Origin: a virus
Length of the DNA stretch: 64,000 nt
Direction: 5' to 3' (one strand)
Virus record (IMG/VR): IMGVR_UViG_3300030361_000024
The position numbers were made by a program, and so were the translations under genes. The notes under the pieces were generated by a model that made no database searches, had not been told where the DNA came from, and worked only from the letters and a program-made list of their open reading frames with translations. Of this stretch, positions 733 through 50,820 are shown one piece after another (within the stretch, counting starts at the first letter, position 1; each line of letters opens with the position of its first letter).

Positions 733-3585
733 CTAGGTCAAATCTACGATTTCACAAACTCCGGCGCTACAGGCTAGAGTGCTAGACCCTTTGGTCGTGT
801 CTTCGCGCTCGAACTCAGCTAGGCCAGACCAGTCAATCGCGCTGGGCATCTTGGCAAGCATGGCCTCGTATTCCTCGCGTGTGCAGTCCTGATATGGTGC
901 CTGCTGGTACGTGTGATCCGAGTGAGGCAGGAAGCTAATCCCGCTAACCTCATCAAAGTGCTTGTAGACCCAAGCGCCAACTTCAAGCCACTCATGATCT
1001 CGCACAGAAACCGTAACAGACGGCTTATGCTCACACCAGTGACGCTGATATGTCAGCCAGAACTCAAGCTGTTCCAGGGCTGTCATGTCGTTGCGCGTGA
1101 TAGCACCTTCTGGCGACTTCATAGGGAAGCTGAAAACCGTAGTGGTATCAGGCTTCATCACGTCAGGCTCATTGGGAATGCCCTGCGACTTCATGAACTC
1201 CGTCAGCGGATCTTTGTTGTCACCTCGAACAGTTCGGATGTAGTAGTCGCTGTGACGCGCGTGGATGCCGCTTGCGGTATCTGTTAGCTGGCTAACCGTT
1301 CCCGATGGCTTCACACACGTGATAGCTGCCGACTGTGGAATGCCAAGGCGTTCTGCCCATTCCTTGTTGGTGTCGATTGCGGTTTGGCGGAGGGTGTCCA
1401 AAACTCGCGGCAGAGGGGGCTCTGAGTAACCGCACATGCCTACATCATTAAGTACTGAACAATCCATAATACCTGTTAGGCTTACACCAAGAAGGCGCTC
1501 CTCTTCAGTATTCTCACGCCAAATATCGCGCAGATACGGGAAGTGGGTGTAGGTGCTTTGGATGGTGCCAAGGATGGTGGCCAGTTTTACCTTTCGTTTC
1601 AGGTCTTCAAGCGTATCATCTGCACGGCATACTACCTCTGTTAGATTGCAAAAGGAATACGGGCGCAAGATAATTTCACTATTTCCTGTCACAATGCCAT
1701 TAAATGTCCCGCGCGACGTTTCAGGCTCAGTGAAGCAATACGTCATCTCATAGCGGTCAAGAGGCTCAATCGAAGCAACGCGAACAAACCGACGCGCATC
1801 ACGCTGAGGGCTTTTGCCATTGTGATCAAGTCGGCTCAGGTTAAGACCCATTTCCATGAGGTCGTAAGCGTCAGAGCTGTTAATCAGGATGCGCTTTGAC
1901 TCTTTGCAGAAGTACTCCTTCATGCCGCCGCGACCGTCAGGCATTTCACGATAGCCAGCGGGTGCTGCAGCTACAACCTTGGCTCGGACTCCCATAGTGG
2001 TAAGCATGAGGCGAAGGCGGTCCAGAAAATCGTGGTCAACAGACGCCAACTGGAACGAAACGCCATGTGTGCTGCGTAGAATTGTTCCGTCAGCATCAAG
2101 AAGCCCAGCCAGCCAGTTCAAGCGATATTCCAGCGTTGCATCCATAGGCACGAATGACTTGTCCATCATAGGCCCGTGATTCCACACTTTGCGCTCAGTT
2201 TTCGAACCGTCTGGGTAAACTTTGCCAATCAAGCGGTCAATGCATGGATACTTAGGCTCATAGACCCAAGAGCGTGTCATGCCCTTGTTGCCATCCCCGG
2301 AGTAGAAGCCTTGAGAGTAAGCATCAATCTGGGGATCATTGTCACCTTCAACGACAGGCATATCAAACTTTTCAAGCTTGTCGCCAACTTTGATATCGCT
2401 GGTCTCGACAAAACCCTTCCCGTCAATCACCCAGCGGTGATTCCAGGTACAATCAAGATATGATCCATCAGTCAATGTGACGCGAACAAGGTCAGCTTCA
2501 CCGGCAGCATATGGAACTACAGTGGCCCAGTTTTCACCGTTCCAGATTTCAGTTTCCTCGCCAACAGTTTCAACGATTGGCTTGTATCCGCTGGACGTCA
2601 GGATTTCGGTCTCAGGCGAGCAACAGCATGGATTTGTCCCGAAGTCCCAATCAGTATCACGGCGACCATTCTTAGCAGCCTGATTAACGCTTGCTTGCCG
2701 ATTGAAGATGCCGCGCTCACCGGACTTGCTTTCCATCAGGGCCAGCCATTCACGCATAAAGCTTTCCGCGTCGGGCTTGTCGGTGAATGCAACGGAGTTG
2801 TTGGCAAGAGCGCGCTGAGGATCAGTCACCCACCACTGGCCTGACTTGGCATGGCGCATACGGTCATCACTGAGGTTGCTGAGGCTAATCATAGCAGAGC
2901 GACGAACGCCACCCACAACCACAATCTCGCCAATCTTACACATCAGGTCGTGACACTCGATGGATGTCAGCTTGCGGCCCTGTGCTTTCTTGAATACGCC
3001 AATGGTGAAGTTAAACAGATCAACCAGCGGATCAGGGCCAGAAGCGCGACCGCCAAATGTCTTGAGCTTGGCACCTGCGGGGCGGACTGCAGACACGTCC
3101 CACGTGGGGGTATGACCGGACCACAAGTGTTCTAGCAGTTCACGATATGATTTGGCCCATCCCTCCTTACTGTCTTCAACGACAATAACCGGCACATCAC
3201 CATCCATCTTCTCAGGCACTTCTGGAAGCTTGTTTACATACTGCCGCTCAACACTGAAGCCCACGCCAGTGCCACACAGCAGGATAAACATTGCCTCATC
3301 AAACGAGCGCGGATGATCTACTGGCAGGTATGAGCAGTTGTAGATGCAAGTATTGTCTCGATCAGCAGCAGGACCAGCGGTCATCAGTGCGCGCATCGAC
3401 GGGGCAGTTTCCAGACCACGAATAGCTTGGCTCAGTTCTTCAACAGTCTCGGCATCAGCGCCAGACGGAACGACGATATTCTCAATATATCGGTCTACAG
3501 TTTCATCCCAAGTTTCTCGCCGGTTTTCTTCTGGCAGCCATCGTGCATAGCGGCTTACCGCGATAAACTTCTGATAGTCATTCAT
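733..3585 (-). CDS. nrdJ: class II (adenosylcobalamin-type) ribonucleotide reductase, intein-containing
   Basis: 950 aa from ATG 3585; the track start at 3588 is a TTG. The catalytic TNPC-x-EI site is split as FGTNPC | intein | SEIILRPYSFCNL. There is a C-terminal Cys pair (CSAGVCEIV). The host protein is about 635 aa once the insert is removed. Confidence 0.9.
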   Translation of the reverse strand: MNDYQKFIAVSRYARWLPEENRRETWDETVDRYIENIVVPSGADAETVEELSQAIRGLETAPSMRALMTAGPAADRDNTCIYNCSYLPVDHPRSFDEAMFILLCGTGVGFSVERQYVNKLPEVPEKMDGDVPVIVVEDSKEGWAKSYRELLEHLWSGHTPTWDVSAVRPAGAKLKTFGGRASGPDPLVDLFNFTIGVFKKAQGRKLTSIECHDLMCKIGEIVVVGGVRRSAMISLSNLSDDRMRHAKSGQWWVTDPQRALANNSVAFTDKPDAESFMREWLALMESKSGERGIFNRQASVNQAAKNGRRDTDWDFGTNPCCCSPETEILTSSGYKPIVETVGEETEIWNGENWATVVPYAAGEADLVRVTLTDGSYLDCTWNHRWVIDGKGFVETSDIKVGDKLEKFDMPVVEGDNDPQIDAYSQGFYSGDGNKGMTRSWVYEPKYPCIDRLIGKVYPDGSKTERKVWNHGPMMDKSFVPMDATLEYRLNWLAGLLDADGTILRSTHGVSFQLASVDHDFLDRLRLMLTTMGVRAKVVAAAPAGYREMPDGRGGMKEYFCKESKRILINSSDAYDLMEMGLNLSRLDHNGKSPQRDARRFVRVASIEPLDRYEMTYCFTEPETSRGTFNGIVTGNSEIILRPYSFCNLTEVVCRADDTLEDLKRKVKLATILGTIQSTYTHFPYLRDIWRENTEEERLLGVSLTGIMDCSVLNDVGMCGYSEPPLPRVLDTLRQTAIDTNKEWAERLGIPQSAAITCVKPSGTVSQLTDTASGIHARHSDYYIRTVRGDNKDPLTEFMKSQGIPNEPDVMKPDTTTVFSFPMKSPEGAITRNDMTALEQLEFWLTYQRHWCEHKPSVTVSVRDHEWLEVGAWVYKHFDEVSGISFLPHSDHTYQQAPYQDCTREEYEAMLAKMPSAIDWSGLAEFEREDTTKGSSTLACSAGVCEIVDLT
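1681..2625 (-). mobile_element. LAGLIDADG-type intein inside nrdJ (315 aa, aa 322-636)
   Basis: In-frame insert at the active-site Cys. It starts CCSPETEILT (block A, Cys1), carries TWNH (block B TxxH) and an LAGLLDADG endonuclease motif (aa 493-501), and ends FNGIVTGN followed by Ser+1. Confidence 0.85.
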
Positions 3586-3680
3586 CAAAGTTTCAATTCC
3601 TTCTCTATGATGTTCAAGATGGCCTTACGCGCCTGAACTTCGGGCACGACATAGTGTCGCCGTTTCAATTTCTGCGCCAT
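3585..3680 (-). CDS. possible 31-aa basic micro-ORF coupled to nrdJ
   Basis: It reads MAQKLKRRHYVVPEVQARKAILNIIEKELKL. Its TGA (3587-3585) overlaps the nrdJ ATG (TGATG). The RBS is weak and the ORF is very short. Confidence 0.25.
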   Translation of the reverse strand: MAQKLKRRHYVVPEVQARKAILNIIEKELKL

Positions 3681-7670: not shown

Positions 7671-7961
7671 TTAGGTCGCTGGTGGACCTACGTATTGGAA
7701 GGTGTCACCGCCGCTAACAATGCAGCTCACCCCATCCTCAACATAGGTGATAAGGACCGCCCAATAGCCGGTGATCTCATTGGCCCACTGTTCAACGTAG
7801 AAGTTCTTTTCCTTGCCAACGGTAACGCGATACATCCCAACGTCCTTCATGGCATTGTAGAACCCAGCGGATGAGCCGCAGTTATCAGGTAGCTCATTAG
7901 CATTGGCTGGGCTTGATACGATGAATAGCGCGATAAGCGCGGGTGCGAAATACTTGAGCAT
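7671..7961 (-). CDS. small secreted protein (96 aa)
   Basis: GGAGGG RBS; signal peptide MLKYFAPALIALFIVSSPANA^NE; two Cys in the mature part. Confidence 0.65.
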   Translation of the reverse strand: MLKYFAPALIALFIVSSPANANELPDNCGSSAGFYNAMKDVGMYRVTVGKEKNFYVEQWANEITGYWAVLITYVEDGVSCIVSGGDTFQYVGPPAT

Positions 7962-8009
7962 AACTGCCCTCCGTGTGTGGATACAGAGCGCAGGATTACG
8001 CCCGATGCC

Positions 8010-8018
8010 ACTATATCA
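8010..8018 (-). promoter_or_regulatory. extended -10 element (TGATATAGT) for the secreted-protein gene
   Basis: The minus strand reads TGATATAGT about 45 nt upstream of ATG 7961. No good -35 element is present. Confidence 0.3.
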
Positions 8019-8054
8019 CAAAAGTGCAATTGTTCATAATCGGACAAGGAAAGT

Positions 8055-8875
8055 AGACCAACCGGGGATTGCAGACCGTGCATTTGACGACTAGGCCAAA
8101 GAGTGGGAACCGTCCTATCTCCGGCAATCTCTTACTTACTTGACGACAGCCGGTTGGTCTTAGTACACGAAACCCGAAGGCTCGGAATCGTCAGGCAAGC
8201 CCGACCAGTTGAGCGTGGCGACCGGCGTATAGCCTAGCCCCGTGCCATTGGCAAAAACCACGCTCATGTGGTGATACAGGTTCGCATATCGGCGGCTTTG
8301 ATGGCATCTCCGCACTATTGCCGATATAGGGGTGGAAACGCGCAACCTAAATGCAACCCCGCTCTGTATCACCACAAAAGAGTGGACATCCCGCTTACCA
8401 GATACGGGGACACTCTTACGCGGTGCCAGTGCTCGTCGCGGTGCATTCAAGGTCGGTCCCGGATATAGGTGTCCGCGCCGCCAATTCATCGCAGAAAAGA
8501 ACACACAAGTTCTGCGATATAGAACGCCGCGAGACAACTGCTGCACGTTCTAACTGTTGATCGTGGCGTAGTTCCGACTTAACGGCTTTGTGGCCTGACC
8601 CACCAGATTTTCGAGTTTGCACCCCGTCACTGGTTTACTACTCACCGCTTTGGCCACGATCATGAGGTGTGACTGCCTTATGCTAGTATTCGGCAATGAC
8701 TTACGATTTCCAACTAGCGATTGGTTCTTGTCGTCTATGTCACACCACAAAATAGCGGTTTAGCGCAGGGATCGCACACTTATGTGACGGCTTTTGCGAC
8801 CCTATCCCGGCCAAGGGAAACACCGCTGCGCTATGTCTTGCCTACCACGCCATTTCAGGTAGCACAATAGGCAAA
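8055..8875. ncRNA. candidate large structured non-coding RNA (class unknown; strand unresolved)
   Basis: An ORF-free stretch of about 0.8 kb packed with nested perfect inverted repeats of 7-12 bp. None has a U-tract. See the finding for coordinates. Confidence 0.4.
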
Positions 8876-8890
8876 TTTCAAAACCCGCGA

Positions 8891-9859
8891 TTACTTTACG
8901 CTCATCAAAACGTCAGTATCTTGACCCATCATAGTCTGGGGCAACTGCCCATTCCAGCGCTGGGCGCGGGTGTACTCAATGAACAGAGGGTTAGCAGCCA
9001 GAGCCTTTTCAACATCACGGATGCCCTGAGCCTCAGCAGCTTTGCGCAATCGTGTTGCGTCAGCTTCTGCTTCAGCCTCTGTTCGCACCTTGTATGCGTT
9101 ACCGTCGGCTTGGGCCTTCAGGGCGTCACGCTGGGCTTCTGCGGTCTGCACGGTTTGCAAGGATTCCAGCCGCTGCCGTTCAAGGTTGTACTGTTCGCGC
9201 GCGGCGTTTTCGCGGGCCTGCTCTTTTTCAAGGACAGACTTCATGTAAACCTCTGGCAGGGCTACATTCTCGATCTGTGGACTGTTGACCGATACAGGAT
9301 ACCCAGCCATCAGATCTGTCAGAATAGCCAGAACCTCAGCCGTTGCTGCCTGTCGATCACGGATCAGCTCATCAGCATTGAACTTGCCGATTGCAGCCTT
9401 TGCAGCTTCACGCAGCTTGGGATCAAGAATGCGCTCCTGAAACTGCCCCAGAGAGCCGTACTTCTTGTAAATATCCATCACCGCATCCGCGCTTGCAGTC
9501 CAGTTGACAGAAACGGTTGCAGTGACAGGAAGTTGGTTCTTGGTTGCTGCCGCCAGATCCTCAACGGTCTTGCGCTCACGGATTTCGATCTTGCGAACCC
9601 CATCAATAAATGGCGCTTTAAAGTGCAGTCCAGGGCCAACCTGATACTGCGCCTCACCGAAGCGTGTAACGACACCTCGCTCACCCTCCCCAACAGTGAA
9701 GAACGAAAACCCTAGAACAACAATACTACCAATACCAATGGCAATATCTCGAATGATTGCCCCTAGCCGAATATCTGATGTCACTTTTACATCGCCATAA
9801 CGATCCTTGCGGGTTTTTTCGTAAGTGTATCGTCCAGTATTCCGAATTTCTACAGCCAT
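8891..9859 (-). CDS. SPFH/Band-7 (prohibitin/HflC-like) membrane protein
   Basis: 322 aa. It has an N-terminal TM helix (AIGIGSIVVLGFSFF), the SPFH core GERGVVTRFGEAQYQVGPGLHFKAPFIDGVRKIEIRE, and a long Ala/Glu/Gln coiled-coil tail. Confidence 0.85.
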   Translation of the reverse strand: MAVEIRNTGRYTYEKTRKDRYGDVKVTSDIRLGAIIRDIAIGIGSIVVLGFSFFTVGEGERGVVTRFGEAQYQVGPGLHFKAPFIDGVRKIEIRERKTVEDLAAATKNQLPVTATVSVNWTASADAVMDIYKKYGSLGQFQERILDPKLREAAKAAIGKFNADELIRDRQAATAEVLAILTDLMAGYPVSVNSPQIENVALPEVYMKSVLEKEQARENAAREQYNLERQRLESLQTVQTAEAQRDALKAQADGNAYKVRTEAEAEADATRLRKAAEAQGIRDVEKALAANPLFIEYTRAQRWNGQLPQTMMGQDTDVLMSVK

Positions 9860-9868
9860 ATTTATCTC

Positions 9869-10018
9869 CTATTGTGTGTAGTAAATAGCCAAAGCCCACA
9901 GGGTAATGACAGCGATAATCCCGCAGACAGCGAACCAGAGACCAACAATCGGTCCGCCTTTGTCGCCATCAAGCCATTCATCAACGGCTTTCAGTTTCTT
10001 GGATAGTGGTGTTTCCAT
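9869..10018 (-). CDS. 49-aa single-pass membrane protein, translationally linked to the SPFH gene
   Basis: Below the track cutoff. ATG 10018 lies behind AGGAGAGG. It reads METPLSKKLKAVDEWLDGDKGGPIVGLWFAVCGIIAVITLWALAIYYTQ. Its TAG lies inside the SPFH RBS. Confidence 0.55.
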   Translation of the reverse strand: METPLSKKLKAVDEWLDGDKGGPIVGLWFAVCGIIAVITLWALAIYYTQ

Positions 10019-10484
10019 ATTTCCTCTCCTTATCCTGCTATCAACATATACGTGTAGCGCATGGTGTCAAGGGGGGATGGTGGGGTCGAGTGGTATAAGA
10101 AAATGTTATATGCCCTAGCCAGAGCTATAAGCTTAACTTATTTGACTTCCGGTTCACTATGCTATAAAAAGAAAAAAGGCCCGCAGCGCTACAACGCTCG
10201 GAAGGTAAAGCGCCAGGATTACAGCCTACGTTGGGATTTGACCTCCAATATGGCGGATTTTGGTTGACCAGCCTAGAAAATGGTCAGGCAGGCGTCAGGA
10301 AACCGGCGGGGCGAGAGCCAAAGGTAAACTAGTACTGGGCGAAAGCTGGGCGTGGTCTGCCCCCCGTGGATAGGATAGGTAGGTATCTCCACGGCAGGAA
10401 AAGGGATCAGTATACCCAGAGTAAGGCTTGACCAATCCTCTGGCATGGTGCAGTTTGCATGAAGTAAAGAATAGGAGAGACCGA

Positions 10485-47970: not shown

Positions 47971-50820
47971 TTATTTGCGACCTTTCCCGCGCAGTCTGTC
48001 CAATCGGTTGTTGCCCTTGCGTAGATTGGACGTGCCACCAAGGATGCGTTGGGGCTGATGTGCCGCCATCTGCTCCCGCATTTGTGCAACCCGTGGCTTC
48101 CTCAGTCCTACCGCGTGTGAGTAGTGCAGCATGATTGTGGTGTCTGCTTTGTCAGGGGACCGGCCAAGGCGTTCCTTGACTTTATCCTTCGGCTCTAGCT
48201 CAACCACCTGCTGCGCCACAGACGATGCGCCAGACTTCCATTCTTTGACACGGAAAGCACACAGTTCAACCAGCAATTCAGGATCTGGGGGGAGGGCAAT
48301 ATCATCGCCATTGTTCGGATCAAGCGCGTCACGCAGCGCCCACAGTGCCTCAGCTTTGAAGTTGCGGAATTTGTACAGCCCGTTGCGAGAGGGTCGCGTT
48401 GACTTGGTGGATGATACAAAGCCGTAGCATTCAATCCCAGCCTCTGCCAGCTTGGTAAGGGCATCACCACCGTAACCGCCACCAGCATCGACAACCACCC
48501 GGCACTGTCCTTTGACCTGCTTCATGATCTCAGAAGCGGCTGTCATTCCGTCTGGGGTTTGCGATCCTGGAACAGTGTGGAAATGTCCGAACCATGCCCC
48601 GTGCCGTGCTTGTACAACAGTCCTATCTGCACCGCCCTGTGCGATGTCAGAGGCAACGGCAGTCATCGGAATATCGTCAGGCGGAGTGTCGATCCACCGG
48701 GCCTGTGCCAAGCGTACCCACTCGGAGGGGATGACTTGTTTCTCATCGTCTTCTTGGTCTGCGGTAAAGTCGCCATACAGCAGCTGGGAACGCAGAGGCT
48801 CAGGCAACGCCATGACGCGCGCCTTGTAGCCCTTGTCATTGGCTAGGTACGGATTGTCAGCAACAAGAGACGGGATGAATGTTCGGCTCATGGCAATATA
48901 CGGCTCACCGTCTACGATATGCTCACCGGGGCCATCAACCCAAACCGTCTTGCCCCTTACGATAATAGACCACCGCAGTTCACCCGGTTGTGCGCGCTGC
49001 GTCCGCTCCGCCTTGATCCACGGGTCAAACTCTTCTAACAGCCATTGCCCGTCACCACCTCGCGGCGGGTTGGTGCCTAGGATAATTCGGCATCGTTGGT
49101 CTGGTCGAGTAGTACGAAGCCAAGCAAACAGGGAGAACACCTGCTCTTTTAGGAACTCGCCAGCCTCATCAAACGCCATATAGTCCCGCGCGTTACCGGC
49201 GTGTTTTCGCCAGTCGTCGGCTTGCTGAAGGCCCGCAAACTTTAGGCTTTTCCCATCCCCCCATGTCCAAAGCTTCTCGACTTTGTTGTAACTTGCATCG
49301 GGAATTTTTTCAAAGACCTCATGAGAGAACGCAATCAGACCATCAAGCTGCGTGGCTTCACGGCGGAAGATGATGCCAGTGTGATGATACAGGGACGGAC
49401 ACCCGACCTCAAGCGCACTATTGTGAGTGACGATGAAGCTATCGCCCAAGCAATAACTGTGATCAGCGTTATCAACTTGGATACACTGCATAGGGACAGG
49501 CTCAACCGGCTGCACGTCTGCGATGTACCGGCGCAAAACGTACTCAGGTTTCGGCGTCAGGTTCTGCAACTTCGCCTTCCTCGGCAGGTTAAAAACCCTC
49601 TTGTCAGTGTTGAATTTCAGTCTGTAGTGATCATTGTGTCTGCTGTTCTTTTTGCTCAGCTCTTTCACTTTGATCGTGCTTTTAATTCCAAGCGTTCCAA
49701 GAAGTCTGTGGACATCCTCAATAAGATCCTTGTCTGAAAAGGACACCTCACAATCACCTCTGCCACGGCAGGCGGTTCCGTCTGTATCCATAAGCCCGCG
49801 AAGCAAGTTGAGCCTCTGCTCATGCGAAGAGCTGAAATATACTTCCGGGATTCTCTTTATGACGAACTCGTTTTCTGACTTACTCCAATCTGTCTCCAGC
49901 AAACGGAACAGATCTTTCCCTAAGTCTTTAGAATGCGCGGCCAGCATTTTCCTTCCTGGACGTTTCATCTCCTTGTATGAAAAGTCATAGACGTCTAGGT
50001 ATGGCTTAAGCACTTGCAAGTCGTCATCCAGCATGGCGATTCTAGAGTGGTATTTATCACCATCTCCGAGCCAGATGCCAAACACATATGGATCAATTGG
50101 CAAGTCAGCGCTTGGAAGCTGAATAGGCTTCATCACTTGAACGCTATGATTTTTCTCACCCCTTTTAGACGTAAGGGTTTCAAAAATCTCTTGCGTGGTT
50201 CGCGCCGATGGCCTTGGAGGCTCACTGTAGTTATATTTCCTCAGTGAGTTATTTTTCTTTGTAGTGTCGCTTTGCAACTTCCCCTTTGATGGGTTGGACT
50301 TCGCACGGCTCGGGCGGCTAGCCTTTCTAGCTTCCCTAAACTCAGGAGTTTTTCTAGATGCGCTTTTGCGCTCTGCGCTGGTCATTGTGATCCACTCGTG
50401 GCGAGCATCACAAATGAAGCTTTCACCCGTGTTGAATGTAACACGATATGCAACGTCTGGGGTGAACACCTCAGATTTAGCAACGACATTTGTTGGAAGC
50501 CCATCCGAGCCAAACACCACGTCACCGACCTTCAAAGTCTCCATGGTTTGCGGGCCTCGATTCGCTGTGTTGATTTTTGTGTTTAAAATCAAGGCCTTGC
50601 CGCCACCACTACCCCCGCCAAAGAGGAGAATATCCGCCTCACTCAGCAACGCATCTGTCTGCGCTCCGGGGTTTGGGATAAACGGCGCTGTTCCGATAGC
50701 TGCGTCTACCGTCTCCTCAAGCTCTTTTCTGGCTTCGGGCGGCATTGCGTCGAGGATTTTCAGGAGTTCATCAATATCCATGTAGGGCCTGCAAACAAAG
50801 AAATAGGTTGCTTGGACCAT
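47971..50820 (-). CDS. terL: terminase large subunit, intein-containing
   Basis: Walker A is split as FGGGSGGGK | intein | S. Walker B is YMAFDEAGEF. The nuclease half is intact. The mature protein is about 557 aa, or about 544 aa if translation starts at Met14 (ATG 50781). Confidence 0.9.
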   Translation of the reverse strand: MVQATYFFVCRPYMDIDELLKILDAMPPEARKELEETVDAAIGTAPFIPNPGAQTDALLSEADILLFGGGSGGGKALILNTKINTANRGPQTMETLKVGDVVFGSDGLPTNVVAKSEVFTPDVAYRVTFNTGESFICDARHEWITMTSAERKSASRKTPEFREARKASRPSRAKSNPSKGKLQSDTTKKNNSLRKYNYSEPPRPSARTTQEIFETLTSKRGEKNHSVQVMKPIQLPSADLPIDPYVFGIWLGDGDKYHSRIAMLDDDLQVLKPYLDVYDFSYKEMKRPGRKMLAAHSKDLGKDLFRLLETDWSKSENEFVIKRIPEVYFSSSHEQRLNLLRGLMDTDGTACRGRGDCEVSFSDKDLIEDVHRLLGTLGIKSTIKVKELSKKNSRHNDHYRLKFNTDKRVFNLPRKAKLQNLTPKPEYVLRRYIADVQPVEPVPMQCIQVDNADHSYCLGDSFIVTHNSALEVGCPSLYHHTGIIFRREATQLDGLIAFSHEVFEKIPDASYNKVEKLWTWGDGKSLKFAGLQQADDWRKHAGNARDYMAFDEAGEFLKEQVFSLFAWLRTTRPDQRCRIILGTNPPRGGDGQWLLEEFDPWIKAERTQRAQPGELRWSIIVRGKTVWVDGPGEHIVDGEPYIAMSRTFIPSLVADNPYLANDKGYKARVMALPEPLRSQLLYGDFTADQEDDEKQVIPSEWVRLAQARWIDTPPDDIPMTAVASDIAQGGADRTVVQARHGAWFGHFHTVPGSQTPDGMTAASEIMKQVKGQCRVVVDAGGGYGGDALTKLAEAGIECYGFVSSTKSTRPSRNGLYKFRNFKAEALWALRDALDPNNGDDIALPPDPELLVELCAFRVKEWKSGASSVAQQVVELEPKDKVKERLGRSPDKADTTIMLHYSHAVGLRKPRVAQMREQMAAHQPQRILGGTSNLRKGNNRLDRLRGKGRK
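49420..50595 (-). mobile_element. class-3-type intein with LAGLIDADG endonuclease inside terL (392 aa, aa 76-467)
   Basis: It starts with Ala (ALILNTKINT) and ends FIVTHN followed by Ser+1. The WCT triad is present: Trp143 two residues after block-B His141, Cys446 in block F (MQCIQV) and Thr465 in block G. Endonuclease motifs are FGIWLGDGD and LLRGLMDTDGT. Confidence 0.85.

Follow-up and report, generated by a model that had tools for sequence, protein, structure and literature searches.

The stretch of DNA analysed here (64,000 nucleotides (nt), hereafter “the window”; IMG/VR virus record IMGVR_UViG_3300030361_000024) is part of a metagenomic phage genome of ~80 kb that is present in many samples. 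The phage genes of the window were confirmed and include a terminase, a T7-type portal, a capsid, a helicase and an exonuclease. Between a gene encoding an SPFH protein (8891-9859, minus strand) and a gene encoding a secreted protein of 96 amino acids (7671-7961, minus strand) is a gap of 929 nt without genes (7962-8890). We consider it rather probable that positions 8055-8874 of this gap hold a cluster of several small structured non-coding RNA genes, all on the minus strand, at a locus of the tRNA-island kind.

Public gene calls on identical contigs leave the gap empty except for one call of 35 amino acids in the JGI records. A preliminary description, made from the sequence alone, had listed six-frame open reading frames (ORFs) in the gap and regarded none as credible. 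Neither these nor two further ORFs matched a family in Pfam or PHROG with E-values up to 0.1, the exception being one Pfam line at chance level. The gene calls and the protein family searches thus agree with that judgement, and the gap is non-coding. Contigs that are near-identical to the window (L002-L006) have the 929 nt at 100% identity and are therefore uninformative. A blastn search of positions 7900-8950 against 50,697 deposited phage genomes gave zero matches. The rest of the 64 kb shares at most 13 nt with the gap region, so there are no dispersed copies and no obvious antisense target in the phage itself.

The gap is dense in inverted repeats. Perfect repeats of at least 8 bp number 8, against 1.5 ± 1.2 expected (0 of 500 dinucleotide shuffles reach 8), and those of at least 9 bp number 5, against 0.38 expected from dinucleotide shuffles. 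Ranked by inverted-repeat score, the top four 929-nt frames of the 64 kb all overlap the gap. Compared with shuffles, the fold of the whole region has a z-score of −3.3 on the plus strand and −3.9 on the minus strand. Every one of the long inverted repeats described earlier was located, at 8055-8065/8150-8160 (11 bp), 8210-8218/8258-8266 (9 bp), 8267-8279/8364-8376 (13 bp), 8286-8293/8320-8327 (8 bp), 8378-8384/8411-8417 (7 bp), 8488-8496/8510-8518 (9 bp), 8520-8526/8546-8552 (7 bp), 8558-8567/8653-8662 (10 bp), 8666-8673/8739-8746 (8 bp), 8761-8768/8826-8833 (8 bp) and 8838-8844/8868-8874 (7 bp). The inner helices 8329-8333/8356-8360 and 8682-8687/8713-8718 are present on reading the sequence, as are the direct repeats TTGACGAC and CGCGGTGC, each in two copies. 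Three loops had been given as about 84 nt long and measure 84-85 nt; the agreement among them is probably a coincidence, and payloads in the family described below span 41-121 nt. Two arms are shared between repeats (8258-8272 and 8654-8662, each used twice), because the middle motif of a recurring module is complementary both to its leader and to its closing motif. The heptamer GATATAG (CUAUAUC on the minus strand) also occurs three times in the gap (8323-8333, 8462-8472 and 8516-8526), always at the edge of a hairpin.

The module consists, in order, of a conserved, single-stranded leader (ACCGCUCUUUUGUG or GCCGCWUUGAUGUG), a hairpin, the motif CUCAUGAGCGYGG, a variable payload, and CCRCGCUC followed by AAC. 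The hairpin starts with GUGUGA and ends with UCACAC; its base is conserved and its tip is free to vary. The middle motif, CAUGAGCGYGG, can pair back with the leader or forward with the closing motif, so that each module frames two interchangeable payload RNAs inside conserved stems. We provisionally defined the family by the leader motif, a GUG-type stem and CUCAUGAGCGYGG in this order, over 73-128 nt and in an intergenic position. The window has two modules that fit this pattern, one formed by 8654-8759 with 8558-8662 and the other by 8258-8385 with 8210-8266. When IMG/VR was scanned for exact patterns, 23 stretches matched the closed unit and 41 matched the junction from hairpin to motif; 13 of the 23 closed-unit matches were chance matches in GC-rich coding DNA and were removed. 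We identified 42 distinct modules in phage contigs, every one of them intergenic and often placed immediately behind a tRNA; the module thus defined occurs in many marine phages. In 35 of the 42, a closure of 7 bp lies 41-121 nt downstream (one outlier, 239 nt) and is followed by AAC or AACC. The closures in the window are CACGATC+AACA and CACGCTC+AACT, at 97 and 49 nt, respectively, from the start of the TGA[G/T]CG[C/T]GG motif.

Hidden Markov models (HMMs) of the two halves of the module, trained with the window left out, ranked the two window modules above all other sites of the 64 kb, with the correct order of the halves and on the minus strand. Module 1 ranked first with the 5′ half (8759-8739, E 0.028) and second with the 3′ half (8673-8660, E 0.056), and the halves of module 2 (8385-8367 and 8277-8261) likewise took one of the first two ranks. 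If one mismatch is allowed, the 9-mer TGAGCGYGG occurs too often to be of use, and the exact 8-mer is not enriched across the window. Exact scans with the module pattern and with the pattern of a second conserved element, M2, found neither in 185,579 bacterial and archaeal species (one genome each), and Rfam 15 holds no family for the module. Within the collections searched the module is restricted to phage contigs, and its absence from Rfam 15 and from the genomes of these species indicates that it may be a phage invention.

Read along the minus strand, the array in the window starts directly past the SPFH stop codon. The first unit, H0 (8838-8874), is a hairpin of 15 bp, five of them G-U, for which the plus strand offers 7 bp only. 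It is the clearest case for the strand, with a fold of −15.9 kcal/mol (z −2.8) on the minus strand vs. −9.7 kcal/mol (z −1.6) on the plus strand, and relatives have a GC hairpin at the equivalent place. Unit E (8761-8833) is 73 nt long, Y-shaped and closed by UAGCGCAG/CUGCGCUA. Its position is taken by a tRNA or a small closed unit in relatives and its architecture parallels that of L012; no tRNA or Rfam family was called in it, and, on reading the sequences, the stem that closes it resembles a divergent version of the module closing stem. The leader hairpin of module 1 (8654-8759) comprises the leader ACCGCUAUUUUGUG (8746-8759), the stem GUGUGAC/GUCACAC, a payload at 8674-8738 and then CUCAUGAUCGUGG. 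In the closed unit of the same module (8558-8662), UGAUCGUGGC pairs with GCCACGAUCA over 10 bp around a payload of 85 nt, with an AAC tail, and the stem has compensated changes relative to the family consensus GAGCGCGG/CCGCGCUC.

Downstream of module 1 are two blocks that are nearly invariant among relatives. M1 (8520-8554) is a 35-nt block, GUUAGAACGUGCAGCAGUUGUCUCGCGGCGUUCUA, with a 7-bp hairpin of its own and a loop complementary to M2. M2 (8390-8437) measures 48 nt and contains the CGCGGTGC direct repeat as well as a small CCCG/CGGG hairpin. A variable hairpin with a 9-bp stem (8488-8518) stands between them. Module 2 follows: its leader hairpin (8258-8385; z −4.1) has the leader CCACUCUUUUGUG, an imperfect stem of 22 bp and a payload of 84 nt, followed by CACAUGAGCGUGG. 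In its closed unit (8210-8266; z −2.9), GAGCGUGG pairs with CCACGCUC ahead of an AAC tail, and the unit is a shortened relative of a payload in L012 and L101. The preliminary description saw none of its helices followed by a U-tract and regarded none as a terminator. This needs correction for a hairpin of the GAGCC-UUCG-GGUUU type at 8173-8186 (minus), which has a weak U-rich tail and scored as terminator-like; its fold alone is not significant (z −0.7). The last unit, A (8055-8160), is a multi-branched structure of 106 nt closed by a stem of 11 bp. Its z-score is −2.3 on the minus strand vs. −1.7 on the plus strand, and its stems include one compensated pair and G-U wobbles.

Relatives of this locus were fetched via the neighbouring exonuclease-like protein of 391 amino acids; with the SPFH protein as query, only a relative at 28% was returned. 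A gene-free gap of 500-1150 nt (600-1150 nt in close relatives) occurs at the same place in a sub-clade comprising L007/L010/L014, L008, L011, L012/L013, L100, L101 and L178. Relatives at 76-79% (L176 and L177) and at 58-70% (L015, L016, L099 and L103) have no gap, so the array is confined to the sub-clade plus scattered other phages. The homology is modular: 8384-8581 has counterparts in L008, L100 and L101, 8046-8158 in L008 and L100, and 8639-8856 in L012. In L008 and L100 the counterparts of these first two blocks are directly adjacent, and the window therefore has an insert of 225 nt (8159-8383) relative to both; the leader hairpin of module 2 belongs to this insert, and the terminator-like hairpin ends it. 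L007 and L008 have an identical 391-amino-acid neighbour protein and near-identical flanks, and the M1-M2-A block is found in L008 only; L101 has no unit A. Among the relatives, single pieces of 70-300 nt are kept, lost, swapped or inserted, which fits independent cassettes and not one large, co-evolving molecule. The scaffold of the array has been exchanged between phages whose proteins are only 40-80% identical.

The conserved helices of the module covary. In an alignment of 43 module skeletons that did not include the window, 81% of the cells in the leader and hairpin helix are paired and 11 of its 22 pairs have changed on both sides, which none of 500 shuffles reached; slid controls gave 29-54% paired. 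In a set of 16 modules that includes the window, such changes were counted in 14 of 22 pairs of the leader and hairpin helix, and the hairpin and closing stems together had 10 of 18. The window variants are compensated in all three partners (CCGCUA, GAUCGUGG and CCACGAUC vs. CCGCUC, GAGCGCGG and CCGCGCUC), and the second module of the window has its own consistent variant. The occurrence of two differing but internally consistent variants in one genome argues against co-evolution with a single DNA-binding protein. Across the alignment, 70 cells are G-U and 22 are A-C, and 19 of the 22 A-C cells fall in two non-pairing columns. This excess indicates that the fold is specific to the strand that is sense for the tRNAs. 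The strand, which had been left open in the preliminary description, can now be given as minus, based on the strand of the tRNAs and the promoter-like start and terminators of relatives, on the G-U excess and on the folding energies of the sub-units (lower on the minus strand in 10 of 10, with a better z-score in 7 of 10).

The equivalent arrays of relatives are associated with tRNAs on the array strand. We identified a tRNA-Arg in L011, a tRNA-Trp and a second tRNA in L100, tRNA-Met in L191 and L197, and tRNA-Asn in L229 and L230. L178 has a tRNA-Phe; here the whole array is inverted relative to its neighbours and the order of tRNA, then module, is kept. Of ten tRNAs called by ARAGORN in the loci examined, seven adjoin a module; the tRNA-Trp of L100 accounts for two of the ten, since it was called in two loci of the same contig. 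Wherever a called tRNA adjoins a module (six loci), it is on the strand of the module. Some payloads have a canonical T-arm, GGUUCGAUUCC, beside the closing strand (L011 and L200, by reading), one of them together with a heptamer that resembles an anticodon loop. A looser scan for T-arms flagged 4 of the 42 modules, and L200 was not among these. The T-arms beside the closing strand indicate that at least some closed units are derived from tRNAs.

Other payloads are conserved individually. The hairpin payload of module 1 is homologous to that of L012, with identical loops (GAAUACUAGCAUAA and UCGCUAG) and four compensated pairs, and the loops could form a contact between GCUAGU and ACUAGC. An exact-pattern scan of IMG/VR for these loops found nothing. 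The closed payload of module 1 is homologous to those of L207 and L208, which were not obtained via the neighbour protein, and several of its inner pairs are compensated.

The M1-M2-A block is conserved in another manner. M1 is identical to the window at 35 of 35 positions in L008 and L100 and at 34 of 34 in L101, phages in which the neighbouring 391-amino-acid protein is only 61-78% identical. For M2, the figures are 48 of 48 (L008), 47 of 48 (L100) and 46 of 48 (L101), and unit A is 85-89% identical in L008 and L100. The spacer from M1 to M2 varies in both sequence and length (82, 83, 63 and 53 nt in the four phages); its hairpin in the window is kept in L100, and L008 and L101 have other hairpins instead. 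RNAalifold predicts long-range pairing between the M1 loop and M2, and the paired columns are invariant. The few changes in or next to M2 are one-sided and keep the predicted pairs on the minus strand (G-C to G-U and U-G to C-G). Exact-pattern scans for M1 and M2 in IMG/VR returned only contigs that were already part of the analysis, and neither a copy nor the complement of the M1-M2 block occurs elsewhere in the window. This conservation may serve the structure of an RNA, the binding of a partner, or the recombination of cassettes with one another.

The arrays of relatives share a layout, all of it on the equivalent of the window's minus strand. They begin with a conserved TTGACA-N17-TATCTAAT, followed by a ribosome-binding site, an ORF for 22-39 hydrophobic amino acids, a GC hairpin and then the structured units. 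Intrinsic terminators were found on the array strand in both loci scanned (L012 2906-2930 and L007 6325-6345). In the window, a promoter-like site (TTGACA, 16 nt, TATGTT; 10043-10070, minus) lies upstream of a gene for a 49-amino-acid membrane peptide (9869-10018) and the SPFH gene. It is likely the start of a transcript that would read through into the array.

Several features were noted near the ends of the arrays. The small hydrophobic ORF (e.g., MGVFAFIWFIAVIDNSLRAAGM) precedes the arrays of L007, L008, L011, L012, L100 and L101; its counterpart in the window is the 49-amino-acid membrane peptide, and the SPFH gene that comes next in the window is missing from these six close relatives. 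Another ~410 nt without genes (10020-10430), which hold the promoter-like site, separate the divergent 49-amino-acid peptide gene from the gene for a DUF4942 methyltransferase. A hairpin with a T-run near 10160-10195 (minus) was recognized by reading and was not listed by the terminator scan. Past the array terminator and ahead of the secreted-protein gene, all close relatives share a block of 28-29 nt, AUGGGGUUUUGGCGGCGUUGUGUCCCCC, at 100% identity (L007 6370-6397, L008 6370-6397, L011 6341-6368, L012 2953-2981, L100 3905-3933 and L101 4343-4371). It begins a long GGCGGCGUUG...CAACGCCGC hairpin and is absent from the window.

Two known kinds of locus resemble the array in layout. Phage tRNA islands, such as that of T4, are co-oriented sets of small structured RNA genes in a tightly packed genome. 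The T4 tRNA cluster also encodes two stable RNAs of unknown function. The array shares this organization, is mosaic, and includes real tRNAs in several relatives. It differs in that the window copy has no recognisable tRNA and in that the units are framed by a conserved scaffold of leader and closing stem, which to our knowledge is not part of any described tRNA island. Transcripts of phage T7 have repeated intergenic hairpins at which RNase III processes them. Like these, the stems of the module have an upper and a lower part split by conserved mismatches, and they occur in a podovirus with a T7-type portal. The window stems are 20-22 bp long with 2-3 mismatches, which makes them candidates for RNase III cleavage by length, sites of this enzyme having ~20 bp of largely paired RNA. 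Unlike the T7 hairpins, their tips are long, structured and variable, and the 3′ arm is reused to close a second unit.

Some other assignments were tried and dropped. A kink-turn in the leader stem was rejected because its GA dinucleotides are not conserved, and a ribozyme like that of hepatitis delta virus after the tRNA because the closing motif does not pair with the leader. ARAGORN found no permuted transfer-messenger RNA (tmRNA), Rfam gave no hit for a Y RNA-like element, and a miniature inverted-repeat transposable element was discarded because the interiors of the copies are not homologous.

The preliminary description compared the gap to giant phage RNAs of the GOLLD/ROOL type. Its broader view, a structured RNA in a phage, remains the best reading, given helices above chance, the lack of coding capacity and the confirmed phage genes. 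The narrower one, a single multi-domain RNA of ~0.8 kb with a variable 5′ half that holds tRNAs and a conserved 3′ M1-M2-A part, which would act as a whole (e.g., as multimers), appears improbable. Both GOLLD and ROOL are RNAs of phages and occur in the vicinity of tRNA islands; GOLLD is conserved in its 3′ region and less so in its 5′ region, its linker in some cases holds tRNAs, and the marine env-38 GOLLD copy is downstream of a Met-tRNA (PMC12286853). The array is like them in being phage-borne, near or mixed with tRNAs, several hundred nt long and rich in nested helices. As in GOLLD, its 3′ part is conserved and its 5′ part is variable: the 3′-most M1-M2-A block is the best conserved, the tRNAs of L100 are in the 5′ part, and RNAalifold proposes the long-range M1-M2 helix. 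However, Rfam 15 gave no match with cmscan, either in the whole window at gathering thresholds or over 7800-9050 at E up to 10, and the models for GOLLD, ROOL, OLE, HEARO, raiA, group I and II introns, RNase P and tmRNA find no counterpart in the window. The pieces are gained and lost independently (L007 has no M1-M2-A, L101 has no unit A, and the window has the 225-nt insert), and the relatives share single blocks only, not the one covarying multi-domain core expected of GOLLD or ROOL members. The columns of the long-range helix are invariant and do not covary, and the fold of the compact M1-M2-A version in L100 is not better than that of shuffles (z −0.01). A cis-acting leader for antitermination, which would keep RNA polymerase moving across a long untranslated region, with a boxA-like Nus-factor site and a boxC-like, GU-rich strand leading into a processing stem, is compatible with the small-RNA cluster and would at most be a role added to it; we consider such a leader doubtful. 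Some leader copies contain CGCUCUUUU or GCUCUUUGAUG, and the boxA of rrn operons and of lambda are UGCUCUUUA and CGCUCUUA, respectively (PMC2724277). In rRNA operons the nut-like order is boxB-boxA-boxC, with boxC part of the RNase III stem (PMC8632103), and PMC7862264, citing Stringer et al. 2020, reports boxA upstream of long non-coding arrays such as CRISPR arrays. In its arrangement the module echoes rRNA leaders and spacers (hairpin, boxA and boxC; tRNA, then boxA), where RNase III stems surround 16S and 23S rRNA: it has a short, conserved U-rich leader followed by a GU-rich strand that is the 5′ side of a long stem around a structured RNA, and it recurs after tRNAs. Many modules have a conserved hairpin just ahead of the leader, and by reading some lie ~25-30 nt past a promoter-like sequence. 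On the other side, most leaders miss the boxA consensus, which is GYTCTTTAANA in gamma-proteobacteria (PMC5725501): the commonest leader (GCCGCAUUGAUGUG or GCCGCUUUGAUGUG; core form GCCGCATTGATG) does not fit it, some relatives have GCTCTTTGATG, and the window leaders GCUAUUUUG and ACUCUUUUG each miss a core position (GCTATTTTGTG and ACTCTTTTGTG hold 6 of 7 core positions, without AANA), all by comparison with gamma-proteobacterial, rrn and lambda sequences from which the host's own boxA may differ. The leader also covaries with the downstream motif as if paired, which is not expected of a single-stranded protein site, and the payloads are 40-120 nt long and are not rRNAs.

Explanations that do without a functional RNA fare worse. 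That the region acts as DNA, as a replication origin, a packaging site or recombination sites (attC-like hairpins, or linkers for the exchange of cassettes), seems very unlikely to us, although it adjoins the replication module, the shuffling of cassettes between phages is real, and what is conserved in M1 and M2 is the sequence and not the pairing. In the attC sites of integrons, the folding strand has RYYYAAC at its 5′ end and GTTRRRY at its 3′ end, and an integron integrase is encoded nearby. The module resembles them in its imperfect base with fixed unpaired positions, its variable tip, its length (73-128 nt; 57-141 nt for attC), its folding as a single strand and its interchangeable cassette arrays, and CGCUCAAC contains RYYYAAC. 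But the unit starts with CAUGAGC and ends with GCUCAAC, so the core-like sites are in reverse order to attC; the payloads are non-coding, tRNAs are embedded among them, and no tyrosine recombinase, other integrase or HUH enzyme was found in the window (Pfam calls for the first). Promoter-like and terminator signals bracket the arrays, the tRNAs next to modules share the module strand even in the inverted array, and the 70 G-U to 22 A-C cells favour one strand. The preliminary description allowed for an origin with iterons. This is unlikely, as the gap has a GC content of 0.49-0.57, no AT-rich tract and no iterons, its short repeats being two-copy only; L007, with flanks near-identical to those of L008, does without M1-M2-A, which is thus not an essential origin. 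It is hardly credible that the gap is a decayed gene or a set of gene remnants. An ORF of 128 amino acids does occur at 8160-8546 (minus), overlapped by others, but these ORFs match no protein family, and the intact ORF in relatives that had been named as evidence for decay does not exist, as the relatives are ORF-less here. The conserved M1 and M2 blocks are 96-100% identical without third-position variation, the spacers of 82, 83, 63 and 53 nt between them break the frame, and all near-identical contigs agree at every one of the 929 nt.

In combination, the results are best explained by one array that comprises two modules, the tRNA-sized unit E, the near-invariant M1-M2 element and unit A. 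The array would probably share a transcript with the genes upstream of it, for the membrane peptide and the SPFH protein, and this transcript may extend as far as the replication genes. Its units are presumed to be processed from a common precursor, as in tRNA islands, and the transcript is probably cut into separate small RNAs. The conserved stems that frame each payload would probably direct its excision, either by RNase III, as in rRNA and T7 transcripts, or by end processing of the tRNA type; the 7-bp closing stem with its single-stranded tail resembles the acceptor end of a tRNA. Once released, the payloads may act as small RNAs or tRNA mimics during infection.

Several points weigh against this cluster of small RNA genes. 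ARAGORN found no tRNA or tmRNA in the window, and the Rfam tRNA model RF00005 likewise has no match there. A covariance model built from the 48-nt skeletons missed the window modules, with its best hits elsewhere and at E of at least 1.9, which we attribute to the inserts of 65-90 nt. The skeletons were assembled by hand around the proposed helix and lean towards it, and the search pattern had already set some of the 3′ arm. M1, M2 and unit A vary so little that they give no covariation, and their conservation could reflect a sequence-specific or DNA-level role; the fold of the compact L100 version, at the level of shuffles, belongs here as well. No RNase, ligase, integrase or reverse transcriptase was identified by Pfam among the genes of the window, which therefore encodes no partner protein, and host enzymes would have to act on such RNAs. 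Finally, promoter, co-transcription and processing are all predicted from sequence patterns.

A more speculative extension, which we regard as unlikely, is that the module is a previously undescribed RNA “display scaffold”, confined to phages within the collections searched, in which a leader hairpin is combined with a 7-bp stem resembling a tRNA acceptor (GAGCGCG/CGCGYUC, followed by A and AC[C]). Marine podoviruses would express, process and exchange a library of payloads on it, some possibly decoys or mimics; in the clade of the window, the cassettes would be linked to the M1-M2-A RNA, which would have its own function. About a third of the copies carry a wobble of the G3-U70 type. If the display scaffold exists, the payloads could be tRNA mimics or decoys against tRNA-directed defences of the host, tRNA-processing enzymes or synthetases.

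Some further observations on the module and its surroundings are given for completeness. Of the 35 closed units, 11 have CGCGUUC as their closing strand (L202, L203, L205, L208, L209, L210, L213, L215, L221, L222 and L225), which places a G-U wobble at the third pair below the unpaired A; the window units have U-A or G-C there. A G-U at the third pair below an unpaired A is the arrangement of the alanine identity element of tRNA-Ala and of tmRNA. Approximately 15-60 nt upstream of the leader, a conserved hairpin, GUGGUCCGCG-UAUUCCUCCCAGA-GCGCGGACCAC, occurs in L203, L205, L209, L211, L213, L218 and L222, with a diverged copy in L217, and its loop contains CCUCC, resembling the 3′ end of 16S rRNA. 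The only Rfam matches in the relatives are tRNAs and one int-alpA element (L181 1438-1501, 41.5 bits, above threshold), which lies elsewhere, with a module ~3.5 kb away on the same phage contig. Among the other genes of the window, the ribonucleotide reductase (733-3588, minus, 951 amino acids) and the large terminase (47971-50820, minus, 949 amino acids) each have a LAGLIDADG homing-endonuclease domain, and both probably contain inteins. In a near-identical contig (L003/L006) the reductase is intein-free and split.

Phage tRNA islands and the large RNAs adjacent to them, such as GOLLD and ROOL, are known but poorly understood. The array adds a third pattern, in which many small RNAs, unrelated to one another but each conserved, are framed by one short scaffold that is itself conserved, and neither the scaffold module nor the M1-M2-A element is covered by Rfam 15 or by the literature that our searches returned. 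The 35-nt and 48-nt blocks, identical across divergent phages, are good candidates for having a specific binding partner in the host or the phage. As the scaffold is easy to search for, it could help to compile a catalogue of the small RNAs of phages from marine viromes, and it could be used to ask whether phages deliver tRNA-like decoys or regulators during infection.

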